Positions 48,812 through 57,433 of a stretch of 64,000 nucleotides of DNA are shown here, one piece after another; position 1 is the first letter of the stretch, and the number at the start of each line of letters is the position of its first letter. The DNA is from a virus. The notes beneath the pieces are model-generated. The model did no database searches. It was given only the letters and a program-made list of their open reading frames with translations, and was not told where the DNA came from. A program made the translations under genes and the position numbers. The stretch lies in the UHGV virus genome UHGV-1376965. One strand, 5' to 3'.

Positions 48812-48990
48812 TGATTTTTAAAACAGAGAAAGTGAAAATAAAAACATGCCGCAAGGCGCGGCATGTATCCAATCAATCACAGGAGCTGAAAATATGAACA
48901 CGGCATTCAAAATCATTATGGCCGCGATCTATTTCTGGCTGTTCTCTATCACTTTTGGCGGCATCGTCGCGCATGGGTAAAGGGGGATGC

Positions 48991-49569
48991 ATGAAAGGCG
49001 AAGTGAAAGAGCGCGGCATGATTTTCAACGATGAGATGGTCCGGGCAATTCTTGGTGGGAATAAAACACAGACTCGCAGGATTGTTGAAGAAAAATTCTA
49101 TGGACGGGCAGTGGCCGTAGAGTTGCTTGCTAAGCATTGTCCATATGGTCAACCGGGCGATCGTATTTGGGTTCGCGAAACCTACCGGGTACATGGCAAA
49201 GCGACGGACGTCGCAACGCTGGTTTATCGCGCAAGCGTGCGTAACTCCTGGACAGAACAAACGCACCGGGTTCCGGTCGAGGTTTGTAATAAACCAGTAT
49301 CAGAAAAGTGGACGCCATCAATTCACATGCCGCGCTGGGCTTCGCGTATTTTGCTGGAAATTACCGACGTGCGTGTGGAACGGCTGCATGACATGAGCGA
49401 GGCAGATGCTAAAGCGGAAGGCGCATCTCCGGCGACGTACAAGATTACACCGCCGGAAGCTGTTTATCGCGTTGGTTTCGGTGATATCTGGCGCGGTATT
49501 TACGGGCAAGAGAACTGGCTATCTAACCCGTGGGTATGGGTAATCGAGTTTAAGCGCATTCAGGAATAA
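48991..49569 (+). CDS. ASCH-domain protein
   Basis: AGGGGG ribosome-binding site; N-terminal MIFNDEMVRAILGGNKTQTRR matches the ASCH GxKTxTxR signature. Confidence 0.6.
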   Translation: MKGEVKERGMIFNDEMVRAILGGNKTQTRRIVEEKFYGRAVAVELLAKHCPYGQPGDRIWVRETYRVHGKATDVATLVYRASVRNSWTEQTHRVPVEVCNKPVSEKWTPSIHMPRWASRILLEITDVRVERLHDMSEADAKAEGASPATYKITPPEAVYRVGFGDIWRGIYGQENWLSNPWVWVIEFKRIQE

Positions 49570-49572
49570 ACC

Positions 49573-50451
49573 GTGAGTATGCATCAAGTTGTCAGCTTTT
49601 CAGGTGGACGAACATCGGCTTATCTCGTTCATCTGATGGAAGCAAAGCGAAAAGCTGGCGCTAGCGTCCATTTCATTTTTATGGATACCGGCTGTGAACA
49701 TCCTCTGACGTATCGCTTTATTCGTGAGGTTGTGAAGTTCTGGAACGTACCGCTAACGGTGTTGCAGGTCGATATAAATCCAGAACTTGGGCAGCCAAAT
49801 GGTTATACGGAATGGGAACCAAAGGATATTCAGACGCGAATGCCGGTGCTTAAACCGTTTATGGACATGGTTAAAAAGTACGGTACGCCATACATCGGCG
49901 GCGCGTTCTGTACTGACAGGCTAAAACTCACCCCTTTCACGAAATATTGCGATGACCATTTTGGGCGAGGGAATTACATCACATGGCTGGGTATTCGTGC
50001 GGACGAACACCGCAGGCTGAAACCGAAACCGGGCGTCCGGTATCTTGCAGAGCTGTCAGATTTTGATAAGTCGGATGTTATCCGGTGGTGGCGAAAACAA
50101 CCTTTTGATTTGCAAATCCCGGAGCACCTAGGGAACTGTGTTTTTTGCATCAAAAAGTCAACGCAAAAGCTGGGGCTTGCATGTAAAGACGAACCTGGTC
50201 TGATGCGGGTTTTTAATGAACTGGTTACAGGTAAACACGTCCGGGATGGTCACCGAAAGACAAATAAAGACGTTATGTACCGTGGTCATCTGAGCCTTGA
50301 CGGGATTGCCAGAATGTATGCCGACAGCGACTACAGAAATTTGTATCAGGCGATGGTGCAAGCCAGGCGATTCGATACCGGCTCGTGTTCAGAGTCATGT
50401 GAAATCTGGGGTGATCAATTGGAGTTGAAATTCGAAGAGGTGGTGGCATGA
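49573..50451 (+). CDS. PAPS reductase / PP-loop ATP pyrophosphatase family protein
   Basis: 292 aa; PP-loop-like SFSGGRTS near the N-terminus; several Cys near the C-terminus. Confidence 0.7.
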   Translation: MSMHQVVSFSGGRTSAYLVHLMEAKRKAGASVHFIFMDTGCEHPLTYRFIREVVKFWNVPLTVLQVDINPELGQPNGYTEWEPKDIQTRMPVLKPFMDMVKKYGTPYIGGAFCTDRLKLTPFTKYCDDHFGRGNYITWLGIRADEHRRLKPKPGVRYLAELSDFDKSDVIRWWRKQPFDLQIPEHLGNCVFCIKKSTQKLGLACKDEPGLMRVFNELVTGKHVRDGHRKTNKDVMYRGHLSLDGIARMYADSDYRNLYQAMVQARRFDTGSCSESCEIWGDQLELKFEEVVA

Positions 50452-51152
50452 CAACCAAAATTAACTATCAGGCACTACGTGAGATAGCAAAACAGGCAAC
50501 ACAGGGCGAATGGGTCGCGTTTATTTCGACGGGTACAGGTACGTATGCTGTGCATACGCCCGGTGATAAACGATGTGAAGATGTTATCAAATGGACCGGC
50601 TTTGATGGGCTGAAAAACGCAGAGAACAACGCTCGTTATGTTGCCGCATTCAACCCAAAGGTTGCACTGGAGCTACTTGGTGAAATTAAGCGCCTGGAGG
50701 ACACAAATATTGATGCTATGTGCCGAATAGCACCGCTTGAGACTAAGCTCGCGGCGCTGGTGGCAGAGAACGCCGGGCTGAAACACGCAATGGCCGTAAC
50801 TCTTGAGCATGTGTCGGTCACGGATGCAGGGCAGGCTGGTGTTGCTGCAATGATTATCAACGATGCCCTACACCACAGCGAAACTCCAGCTACCGATGCT
50901 TTTCTGGCTGAAATTCGTGCGGAAGCACGCAACGAGGGGATTAACTATACCGCCAGCCGTCTTGCTGCTGCGTTCAATCACGGATTTATCAATAAGTCTT
51001 TGCGTGAAGTTTTCGACGTTACACGCATGATTTTGTCAGCGAAAGAAGAGTTGGCTAATGAAGCGCATCCGATTGATGGCCTGTCTGGTGAATATGCGGA
51101 GAAATCCCTTGAAGAATGGGCGGAACAGATTCGCAAAGGAAGCAGCCAGTGA
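50448..51152 (+). CDS. Ea22-like modular protein
   Basis: N-terminal INYQALREIAKQAT and internal ATDAFLAEIRAE blocks shared with the paralog at 51436. Confidence 0.5.
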   Translation: MTTKINYQALREIAKQATQGEWVAFISTGTGTYAVHTPGDKRCEDVIKWTGFDGLKNAENNARYVAAFNPKVALELLGEIKRLEDTNIDAMCRIAPLETKLAALVAENAGLKHAMAVTLEHVSVTDAGQAGVAAMIINDALHHSETPATDAFLAEIRAEARNEGINYTASRLAAAFNHGFINKSLREVFDVTRMILSAKEELANEAHPIDGLSGEYAEKSLEEWAEQIRKGSSQ

Positions 51153-55582: not shown

Positions 55583-55957
55583 ATGATGACACTAAAACAT
55601 TTTCTTGACCGCCCATTATGGGCGGCAGCCGCAGGCTATGACTTTAATTATATGGATTGCATGTCTTATACCGCCAATGCATACGACTATTCCTTCAGTC
55701 TGCTGCTTAATTCTTTAAGAATATTGCCGCAAACAGAAGTTGGAGAGCTTCATTTATGGCTATTGGGCTTTATCGCGGCTGGAGTTGGTATTGCTGTATG
55801 GCCTTTTATTTTCTGGCTGGTGGCTGTTGTAGTGTGGTTTAAGTGCAAGACGTACCGGAGAAAGTATTTCTTAGGTGATGGAATGACTGATATTGCCAAA
55901 ATGAACATTGAAAAATGGACTAAGGAATGTGAAAAGAAATGGCGCAAAAAGAAATGA
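55583..55957 (+). CDS. Membrane protein
   Basis: 124 aa with a long hydrophobic stretch (LWLLGFIAAGVGIAVWPFIFWLVAVVVWF). Confidence 0.5.
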   Translation: MMTLKHFLDRPLWAAAAGYDFNYMDCMSYTANAYDYSFSLLLNSLRILPQTEVGELHLWLLGFIAAGVGIAVWPFIFWLVAVVVWFKCKTYRRKYFLGDGMTDIAKMNIEKWTKECEKKWRKKK

Positions 55958-56871
55958 CCAGAATCACTGAAGAGCGTATATCAGAGATTATTTCCCGTAT
56001 CGAAATGTATGGTCACGGTGCTGGATATACGGCAGATGAAGTATTGGCACTTGCCCAAATGGCTTTGGCGGCTTGCAAAGATGATAAAAAAATGAAGTTT
56101 ATCGACTTGTTAGTGAAGGAACTGCCTAAGTGCGGCGGGTGGCCTGATGGAATGAGTTATTGTTACCTACCCAGTGTCAATTTAATGGCACCATGCGCGA
56201 CTTTTGCTTTTGGCTCAGACCACAAAAAAGACACTTTCTTTGGGCGCAATTTTTGTTGTGAGATTGAGCTTCCAATTGGTGACCTTGATAGCGATGAATA
56301 CCAGTCAGTTGTCACTCGCGAACAATACGAATCAGCTCTCATAGCGTCGCAGAAAGTCGAGTTCAATGGTGATGAACTTGAAAGTAAGACTTACAGGTTG
56401 GATTTTGGGCAATGGCTGGAACAGCAACGCGGGAAAATCGATGTGGACTGTGGTTGTGTGTCCACTGAAACATTCATGCACTGGCTGCGGGTAGCTTACG
56501 AGGCTGGCAACTATCCGGATATTCCGGATAGTTCGGTGCCAGCACCAGGAAAGGGCGTCACCGGTGAACGTATCCGAATTAAGCCGCATGTTTATCGCGA
56601 ACTGGTTAACCGTCTCCACGATACAGCGATCAAGTGTGCTGGCACCCAGCAATTACGAGAAAGAATTAGCCGTGTTTTGGGCGACGTTATTACACCAGAT
56701 CATCATAAACAAGCCGAGAAAAGTGGCCTGGAAAGGTGTCACCTTGAGGCGGCATTAAACATTAAGCCGGGGCATACGCTTGGCATTATTGATGCACTAT
56801 TGGTTCATAAGATGGCCAGGGCTTTATTGCCGCTGGTGGATGCTGGCGATACAAGCGAGGGTGAAGTATGA
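55939..56871 (+). CDS. Hypothetical protein
   Basis: 310-aa ORF, overlap-coupled. Confidence 0.5.
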   Translation: MAQKEMTRITEERISEIISRIEMYGHGAGYTADEVLALAQMALAACKDDKKMKFIDLLVKELPKCGGWPDGMSYCYLPSVNLMAPCATFAFGSDHKKDTFFGRNFCCEIELPIGDLDSDEYQSVVTREQYESALIASQKVEFNGDELESKTYRLDFGQWLEQQRGKIDVDCGCVSTETFMHWLRVAYEAGNYPDIPDSSVPAPGKGVTGERIRIKPHVYRELVNRLHDTAIKCAGTQQLRERISRVLGDVITPDHHKQAEKSGLERCHLEAALNIKPGHTLGIIDALLVHKMARALLPLVDAGDTSEGEV

Positions 56872-57230
56872 GAGTTGCAGATCACATCAAACACCTTGAA
56901 AGAATTATCGAAAACGGTGAACTCTTAAGAGATCAGATGAGACGCACGGCAGAAGTCAGAGAGGCGATAATCCGCAGTCAGGCTGGTAAATTAAAGCAAT
57001 TATCAGAGATTAACGCGCTATACAAGAACAGACGTAACCGGGCGGCGCTGCGGCTTCAGAAAGCACGTAATGAAATTAAATTGGTGGAGGCAAAACTGAA
57101 AAAACAGATTCAGCGTTACGATCAGCAAGATGCTTTTTATGCCGCCATCAAGGCGGCTGCTAATGAAATAGGCATCTGGAAGTTGCTGGTGGAGAAAGCA
57201 AAGACGAAGTTAAATGCCAACGAAAGCTGA
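56868..57230 (+). CDS. Coiled-coil hypothetical protein
   Basis: 120 aa, charged helical. Confidence 0.5.
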   Translation: MRVADHIKHLERIIENGELLRDQMRRTAEVREAIIRSQAGKLKQLSEINALYKNRRNRAALRLQKARNEIKLVEAKLKKQIQRYDQQDAFYAAIKAAANEIGIWKLLVEKAKTKLNANES

Positions 57231-57295
57231 ACTACAGGTACCCACCAGCACATACAGAAAATGATTGTTTCCACATCAAGGAGATTTTAATGTTT

Positions 57296-57433
57296 CACTG
57301 AACATTAAGTAAGCCAGTGCATAATTCCATTTTTTACTGACCTTAAAAGCAAAATCAAAACGATGATGAGGATGATCGCCAGAATCTGGCTAATAACAGG
57401 CGCATCTAAAAATGCACTCAGGAACTGAAAAAA
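57296..57433 (-). CDS. 45-aa hydrophobic peptide, convergent with the upstream operon
   Basis: MTAFFQFLSAFLDAPVISQILAIILIIVLILLLRSVKNGIMHWLT; below the ORF-track cutoff. Confidence 0.35.

Follow-up and report, generated by a model that had tools for sequence, protein, structure and literature searches.

Four small open reading frames (ORFs) for hydrophobic peptides, referred to as ORF1 to ORF4, lie between positions 48894 and 57442 of a 64,000-nucleotide (nt) stretch of the viral genome UHGV-1376965, which was analysed as a whole and is called the window. Comparison by megablast of positions 48000-59400 with phage records and with the annotated P1 and P7 records identified the window as a P1-family (Punavirus) phage-plasmid, and the stretch that carries the ORFs has been described as 'variable region 8' of P1-like elements (PMC9603915). 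The four ORFs do not form one system. They are read here, with a probability of roughly 0.5, as three unrelated things: ORF2 and ORF3 are genes embedded in an operon, ORF1 is the first cistron of that operon, and ORF4 belongs to a minus-strand module that is opposed by an antisense promoter and stands on a copy of the Escherichia coli nrdAB promoter. An earlier note on this DNA had listed the four together as unannotated genes for small hydrophobic peptides. All four are present in the window; the coordinates given for ORF2 and ORF3 are exact, and those for ORF1 and ORF4 are off by 3 nt and 9 nt respectively. The hydrophobic character is borne out, with a maximum over 17-residue Kyte-Doolittle windows of 1.8 for ORF1-3 and of 3.3 for ORF4, by far the most hydrophobic small ORF of the window. 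The description as unannotated is right for the P1 reference record, in which none of the four is annotated, and does not hold generally, since the RefSeq record of SJ46 annotates ORF1 (in a 44-residue form, as 'membrane protein'), ORF3 and ORF4, and the 813R1 record annotates ORF3. A literature search returned no mention of these peptides.

ORF2 (54785-54868, plus strand) encodes a 27-residue single-pass membrane peptide (MSWPEAFTTVGIVMAAALGLYSICRWW) and ORF3 (55153-55275, plus strand) a membrane peptide of 40 residues, and together they exactly fill the sole gaps of a tightly packed operon. The Shine-Dalgarno (SD) sequence of ORF2, AGGAGG, lies 7 nt ahead of an ATG that overlaps the stop codon of the upstream DUF551 gene (ATGA), and the ATG of the next gene follows 2 nt past the ORF2 stop; ORF3 has a weaker SD sequence (GAGAG) and is followed by the next gene after 7 nt. 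By tblastn, the ORF2 peptide matches ~90 phages at 54-81% identity, including 933W, VT2-Sakai, BP-4795 and Av-05. In all six loci that were fetched the homolog stands at this junction, its ATG likewise overlapping the stop codon of a DUF551/Ea22-like gene, and is itself unannotated. Each of the seven diverged copies has 27 codons and the motif M-[ST]-W-P-[ED]-A ... Y-S-I-C-R-W, pairwise ratios of non-synonymous to synonymous substitution rates (dN/dS) range from 0.07 to 0.57, and the differences fall 121/88/236 by codon position, an excess at the third. These comparisons indicate that ORF2 is a real gene under purifying selection. Family searches were made for the four peptides and for a 21-codon ORF upstream of ORF4 in Pfam, NCBIfam, PADLOC and PHROGs, and for the DNA in Rfam; for the peptides the only family found was phrog_5525, for ORF3. 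No family was found for the ORF2 peptides in PHROGs, Pfam, NCBIfam or PADLOC, the match to Pfam DUF7512 (16.4 bits) falling below the gathering cutoff of 27, and their likeness is to unnamed 27-residue peptides of lambdoid phages that have the same motif at the same gene junction. ORF2 defines a widespread, mostly unannotated family of 27-residue membrane peptides. In 933W (AF125520, 876-1150), the ORF2 homolog is followed after ~100 bp by hokW/mokW/sokW, an annotated type I locus, and a type I system thus adjoins an ORF2-type gene in Shiga toxin (Stx) phages, not in the window.

The match of ORF3 to phrog_5525, a family without known function, runs end to end (residues 1-40 versus profile positions 1-40, E = 1.2e-24). 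EC.W1-9 and phiv142-3 have annotated homologs, ~50% identical to it and also 40 codons long, which overlap the stop of an Ea22/Eaa gene; with a dN/dS of about 0.17, ORF3 is likewise indicated to be a real gene. ORF2 and ORF3 are translationally coupled small single-pass membrane proteins that keep their lengths across diverged lambdoid/Stx phages. The larger genes that surround ORF1-3 (Ead/Ea22-like, DUF551 and PAPS-reductase-like) form an accessory set common to lambdoid phages, and it is suggested that ORF2 and ORF3 would have come from an accessory pool common to P1-like and lambdoid/Stx phages and would be translated by coupling in an operon repressed by C1. For ORF1-3 no toxin-antitoxin features were found, and they are ordinary operon-embedded small genes. 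A 124-residue ORF with a long hydrophobic segment (55583-55957), a member of phrog_2638 (unknown function) and an uncharacterised membrane protein, adjoins ORF3 in the low-GC (39%) part of the operon and belongs to the same cassette.

ORF1 (48894-48980, plus strand) is probably the first cistron of this C1-controlled operon, where it would encode a 28-residue hydrophobic membrane peptide (MNTAFKIIMAAIYFWLFSITFGGIVAHG). The C1 repressor operator OpmgT (ATTGCTCTAATAAATCT; 48795-48811, plus strand) is a position-for-position match to the P1 annotation, and the promoters of the pmgT operon overlap it directly after pap, at ~48795-48840. Between the promoters and ORF1, where the operon transcript is predicted to begin, stands a perfect 10-bp GC-rich hairpin (48844-48866), and the SD sequence of ORF1, AGGAG, follows at 48881-48885, 8 nt ahead of the ATG; the next gene begins 11 nt past the stop. 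A longer, 44-residue form of ORF1 starts at 48846. Given that the hairpin falls inside this extension and that the SD sequence belongs to the 28-residue start, the shorter form is favoured. ORF1 was found in 873 plasmids, and both it and its SD sequence are intact in all full-length copies. Its position is invariant in P1-type elements whatever follows it, be it pmgT in P1, the genes of P7, those of the window or, where a type I restriction-modification cassette replaces the operon, a convergent hsdR. Only near-identical relatives of ORF1 were found. Copies on IncF plasmids were considered as independent evidence and rejected, since they have lost their 5' ends to IS1 and are remnants next to hsdR.

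Several side observations concern the same junction. The hairpin at 48844-48866 is the best terminator-like match of the region, and with the T-run (TTTTATTTT) that comes after it on the minus strand it resembles a strong intrinsic terminator; in that orientation it could keep antisense transcripts, such as those from the convergent hsdR of the cassette variants, out of pap. The type I restriction-modification cassette (hsdM/S/R) replaces the entire pmgT-pmgV operon in some P1-type plasmids, exactly between ORF1 and ORF4, and the hsdR-proximal junction, with its IS1-cut, 5'-truncated ORF1 remnant, is also carried by IncF conjugative plasmids. The P1-type and IncF plasmid records behind these observations are CP057172, NZ_CP143628 and NZ_LC520270.

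ORF4 (57305-57442, minus strand) encodes a strongly hydrophobic peptide of 45 residues (MTAFFQFLSAFLDAPVISQILAIILIIVLILLLRSVKNGIMHWLT) with a predicted basic C-terminal flank, and its SD sequence, AGGAA (57455-57451), lies 8 nt ahead of the ATG. Among the 511 ATG-initiated ORFs of 25-60 codons in the window, it is the only one that is hydrophobic, lies in a gap between genes and has an SD sequence. As the earlier note held, ORF4 is convergent with the upstream operon (pmgT-pmgV): the pmgV stop is at 57230 and no plus-strand terminator was found before ORF4.

The minus-strand promoter that points to ORF4 (57702-57730) is a copy of that of nrdAB, with the -35 element TTGCAA (57730-57725), a 17-nt spacer and the -10 element TATTGT (57707-57702). 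Two DnaA boxes, TTATCCACA (57750-57742) and TTATGCACT (57738-57730), abut the -35 element on the same strand, at 57730-57750. They lie in a host-derived segment (57712-57853) homologous to the region upstream of E. coli nrdA that holds ypaB, and positions 57712-57767 are 92-96% identical to a chromosomal site under ypaB in 5426 of 5426 complete E. coli genomes. In K-12 the matching site is ~125 bp upstream of nrdA and, when read in the sense of ORF4, has nrdA downstream on the same strand. In the K-12 alignment the DnaA boxes and TTGCAA are identical and both spacers are 17 nt; homology ends at the -10 element, which stands at the same position and reads TATTGT in P1 versus TATCTT in nrdAB. 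These elements are kept in all three alleles of the locus, the diverged allele having TTGCAA-17-TACTGT. DnaA binds the nrdAB promoter and is listed among its regulators, and the old NrdR 'box 0' (ACACTATCTTGCAGTG) lies over the nrdAB -10 element, the functional NrdR boxes being downstream of the promoter (PMC12176259). The E. coli promoter is regulated by DnaA, Fis, H-NS and NrdR; the P1 copy shares its orientation and DnaA boxes and, unlike it, is without NrdR boxes 1 and 2 and faces a phage leader and ORF4, not ribonucleotide reductase. No NrdR-box match was found in the P1 leader. The P1 record already notes the likeness of the two DnaA boxes to an E. coli region. The homology indicates that a host DnaA-regulated promoter has been captured and points to the 21-codon ORF and ORF4; its activity as a promoter and its response to DnaA are predicted.

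Transcription from the captured promoter is predicted to start at about 57695 and to give ORF4 a leader of about 255 nt. Given this start, PupfN (57485-57513, plus strand; TTGACG-17-TATAGT) is a face-to-face promoter inside the predicted ORF4 leader. PupfN is the top sigma-70 match of the region, agrees with the consensus at 10 of 12 positions and is invariant in all lineages, and its RNA is predicted to start near 57520. It points away from ORF4, so that the overlap of the two predicted convergent transcripts, ~175 nt, is limited to the 5' leader. This overlap coincides with a conserved block (57443-57660) that is structured on both strands and that, in the ~200 bp upstream of ORF4, is 85-97% identical between lineages, the best of the locus, versus 70-88% for ORF4; lineages with this identity in the block differ by 22% within ORF4. 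The predicted PupfN RNA folds into three hairpins (z = -4.6 over 147 nt and -5.0 over 226 nt) and the ORF4-sense strand of the block is also structured (z = -3.1). One hairpin in the block carries a compensatory U-A to C-G change and another keeps its stem while its loop changes. A further hairpin (57289-57306, minus strand), 3' of ORF4 and partly covering its stop codon, shows one compensatory U-A to C-G pair, and at another pair G-C has become G-U. The leader also holds the 21-codon ORF (57573-57638, minus strand), which is open in all lineages; its strong SD sequence, AAGGAG (57662-57657), precedes its ATG by 18 nt and a nearer, non-conserved ATG by 10 nt. With eight non-synonymous nucleotide changes and one synonymous, this ORF evolves non-conservatively, and its sequence is probably not under constraint at the protein level.

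The same DNA carries, in the P1 annotation (Lobocka et al. 2004, record NC_005856), the plus-strand genes upfM (57412-57525), upfN (57541-57738) and upfO (57716-57856). That record annotates PupfN and the DnaA boxes, and does not annotate the minus-strand ORF4 or the nrd-like promoter. Annotated UpfM matches phrog_31823. In the diverged lineage (CP057172, NZ_CP036204), upfM, upfN and upfO are all frameshifted or interrupted and hot, further along on the same side, is conserved; the minus-strand ORFs stay open there. Furthermore, upfO is the counterpart of E. coli YpaB (65% amino acid identity, E = 4e-18), and ypaB overlaps the nrdA promoter. The loss in one lineage suggests that upfM, upfN and upfO are probably not genes, and the homology marks upfO as a by-product of the captured ypaB/nrd region.

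The ~535-bp unit from about 57230 to 57765 is intact beside differing neighbours, which are pmgV or hsdM on its left and, on its right, hot or, in P7/SJ46, other ORFs and IS903. In the P7/SJ46 lineage hot is absent and the entire module is kept.

Whether ORF4 itself is a gene was weighed from its relatives, which were sought by tblastn in plasmids and phages, in an index of 5.8 billion proteins, with a DNA pattern of the conserved core in viral and genome contigs, with a degenerate back-translation scan of metagenomes and by exhaustive HMMER on 1.84 billion representatives. Across all searches ORF4 occurs in three alleles only (100%, 96% and ~60% amino acid identity), all in P1-type elements; P1 has exactly the same peptide, about 230 plasmids and 13 phage records contain it, and no remote homolog was found among the 1.84 billion representative proteins by HMMER. 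The sole match of the conserved P1 core in genome contigs, JALONF010000030.1, is labelled as an Ignavibacteriaceae metagenome-assembled genome and is most likely enterobacterial P1-like DNA that was binned there as a contaminant.

A number of observations weigh against the reading of ORF4 as a translated frame opposed by antisense. Given that only three alleles exist anywhere searched, the comparative power for ORF4 is low. There are 31 differences between the alleles (11/8/12 at the three codon positions), and the Nei-Gojobori dN/dS of 0.45 is not distinctive, as random placement gives equally few non-synonymous changes (P about 0.4-0.5). The frame stays open by chance in 9.6% of simulated trials. 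Vb_EcoM-813R1 has a 1-nt deletion in a T7 run at codons 3-5, a frameshift, and in a few database variants the C-terminal tail is frameshifted or interrupted. No intrinsic terminator was found 3' of ORF4 and no clean terminator for the plus-strand PupfN RNA, and the test of G-U versus C-A pairs gives a symmetric result when the prediction is mirrored, so that the structured RNA cannot be placed on one strand by covariation. The region is non-essential for lytic growth, upfM being outside that test (PMC10695390). At the other end of the operon, the variable sites of ORF1 stand at five non-synonymous to four synonymous, which is not significant. The symmetry of the covariation is the outcome expected if both strands are transcribed. 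The frameshifts in 813R1 and the database variants could be either homopolymer sequencing errors or real inactivation.

It is possible, on the unlikely side, that ORF4 is not translated and that the module is regulatory RNA or DNA, in which a DnaA-responsive minus-strand transcript opposes PupfN transcription toward hot, or the reverse, with the frame open by chance in T-rich sequence. The absence of third-position bias and of any depletion of non-synonymous changes is what this would predict, as is the better conservation of the upstream block; frameshifted variants exist, and a hydrophobic reading is the default for this composition (P = 0.40). Going by the title of Chikova and Schaaper 2007, hot is reportedly expressed in lysogens, which would require an active plus-strand promoter upstream. 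However, four points stand against it: first, ORF4 is 70-88% identical without a single indel, and its 3' flank reaches only 57-65% and has three. Second, the SD sequence and ATG are kept in all alleles, and indeed all three keep the 45 codons and the stop as well. Third, ORF4 is the sole long open frame of six in both alleles compared. Fourth, a module serving hot would not be expected to persist entire in the P7/SJ46 lineage, where hot is missing. The joint chance that the frame stays open and is as hydrophobic is 0.04, and the differences in the transmembrane core fall 7/1/6 by codon position, which is suggestive in a test made post hoc. Taken together, the comparison of alleles tips the balance modestly towards ORF4 being a gene.

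For ORF4, the earlier note had named an AT-rich tract beyond the frame and a likeness to type I toxin-antitoxin or membrane-depolarising peptides. The version that follows from it, a type I toxin repressed by an antisense RNA over its coding region and acting as an addiction or membrane-depolarising module, is very improbable. The peptide is small and very hydrophobic with a basic C-terminal flank, convergence with an operon that lacks a terminator would give a read-through RNA antisense to ORF4, and the P1 annotators predicted plus-strand promoters inside and beside ORF4. However, those promoters, P1upfM and P2upfM, are poor matches (ATTGTT/TTAATG and ACTGAA/CATAAT) and do not survive in the diverged lineage, where the P1upfM -10 element is destroyed. 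P1, moreover, already has phd/doc for addiction. The tract past ORF4 is unremarkable at 38% GC versus 37% in ORF4 itself, and the truly AT-rich stretch (26% GC, 57640-57720) is upstream of ORF4. Neither the models of Hok/Gef, Ldr, TisB, Ibs, ShoB and Fst nor, at E <= 1, Pfam or NCBIfam matched ORF4. Rfam gave no family at E <= 1 in 46000-60000, and so no Sok-like RNA, but for a spurious GcvB at the 48.85-kb hairpin, and the anti-phage defence models of PADLOC gave none at E <= 1 for ORF1-4. There is no direct repeat linking the small RNA region to the ORF4 start region, as would be seen with trans-complementarity of the tisB/istR-1, zorO/orzO or shoB/ohsC type.

What remains of the likeness to a type I system lies in the small transmembrane peptide, the long structured leader and the conserved opposite-strand promoter within that leader. 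By analogy, a type I toxin-like layout at ORF4 is plausible with the antisense over the leader, not over the coding region. Compared with hok/sok, including hokW/sokW of 933W, the locus is alike in its predicted mRNA, which is long and structured and closes with the frame of a small hydrophobic peptide, in a short upstream ORF with a strong SD sequence, in an antisense promoter within the 5' part of that mRNA, and in residing on a plasmid-prophage. It is unlike hok/sok in that ORF4 has no sequence or profile similarity to Hok/Gef, that the 21-codon ORF, which ends at 57573, is separated by 130 nt from the ORF4 start at 57442 and so lacks the overlap seen with mok, and that the predicted antisense RNA is longer and has three hairpins. 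A hok-like fold-back of the 5' and 3' ends (fbi/tac) was tried as a defining feature and rejected: complementarities of 13 bp and 15 nt occur in the P1 and P7 alleles (z about -2.5), and the fold-back is absent in the diverged allele (z about 0). The face-to-face promoters also resemble countertranscript control, as in ColE1 RNA I/RNA II, R1 CopA/CopT and IS10 RNA-OUT/RNA-IN, in that a short multi-hairpin RNA, here a predicted one, is fully complementary to the opposing 5' leader and conservation within the locus is highest in the overlap. What those systems control is replication or transposase, in contrast to the predicted 45-residue membrane peptide and/or hot here.

A further possibility is that ORF4 is a translated 'moron' membrane protein expressed in lysogeny, acting for example in exclusion or envelope modification with no toxin-antitoxin logic, and that the conserved block is the promoter and leader of the plus-strand hot transcript. 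ORF4 having its own promoter and the opposite orientation, in a slot for exchangeable cargo that is filled by another minus-strand gene in D6 and RCS47, would fit this, as would the dispensability for lytic growth. This is improbable, given that it leaves unexplained both why conservation in the locus peaks in a 255-nt leader with a face-to-face promoter and the persistence of the module without hot in P7/SJ46. Phage D6 (NC_050154, 7388-7738) lacks the ORF4 module and has in the slot orf106, a minus-strand gene of 116 codons that adjoins a truncated hot and for which Pfam and PADLOC gave no informative family; RCS47 is alike by its annotation note. This suggests that the slot is an exchangeable position for minus-strand cargo.

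If the reading of ORF4 as an antisense-opposed module is correct, the following order of events is suggested. In the lysogen, the nrdAB-like promoter would make a leader-ORF4 mRNA from near 57695 at a level set by DnaA, and the three-hairpin countertranscript from PupfN, fully complementary to about 110-175 nt of the leader, would pair with it and/or collide with its transcription, limiting translation of ORF4. Upon lytic induction, transcripts running on from the then derepressed pmgT operon would form a second layer of antisense across ORF4, the stretch from 57230 to about 57600 having yielded no plus-strand terminator. The ORF4 product would insert as a single-pass peptide with its basic C-terminal flank.

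The surrounding gene order is that of P1-like elements, with pmgS (46954-48216) and pap (48289-48795) before ORF1, pmgV (56868-57230, plus strand) at the end of the variable plus-strand operon, and hot (57871-58143) followed by humD and phd/doc. The LexA-regulated minus-strand gene lxr, which lies between hot and humD in P1, is absent from the window (58144-58266), where hot and humD are ~120 bp apart. Elsewhere in the window, at 52919-53453, are three consecutive small basic ORFs of 58, 58 and 62 codons whose start and stop codons overlap. The first two are without a Pfam family; the last two both start MKNRKAK, have a common K-[KR]-P-x-A-x-QNR motif and look like tandem paralogs.

As a reference phage, P1 serves as a workhorse in bacterial genetics, and in Enterobacteriaceae resistance genes are commonly carried by P1-type phage-plasmids. 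The ORF2 family is of use to annotators and to work on small proteins, being unannotated in the lambdoid/Stx records inspected, 933W and BP-4795 included. The P1 reference annotation of upfM, upfN and upfO is probably wrong, and what is suggested instead for the locus is a membrane peptide downstream of a promoter with DnaA boxes, taken from the host, that faces a conserved antisense promoter. The fuller claim, that P1 and its relatives carry an unrecognised type I-like membrane-toxin module, tied to DnaA and replication through the captured nrdAB promoter and gated by the three-hairpin countertranscript, with upfM, upfN and upfO as wrong-strand artefacts, is unlikely as a whole. Should the ORF4 peptide be made and be toxic, it would constitute a second addiction or stress module of P1, wired to the host replication initiator, and would show a phage that has taken over a cell-cycle promoter from its host.

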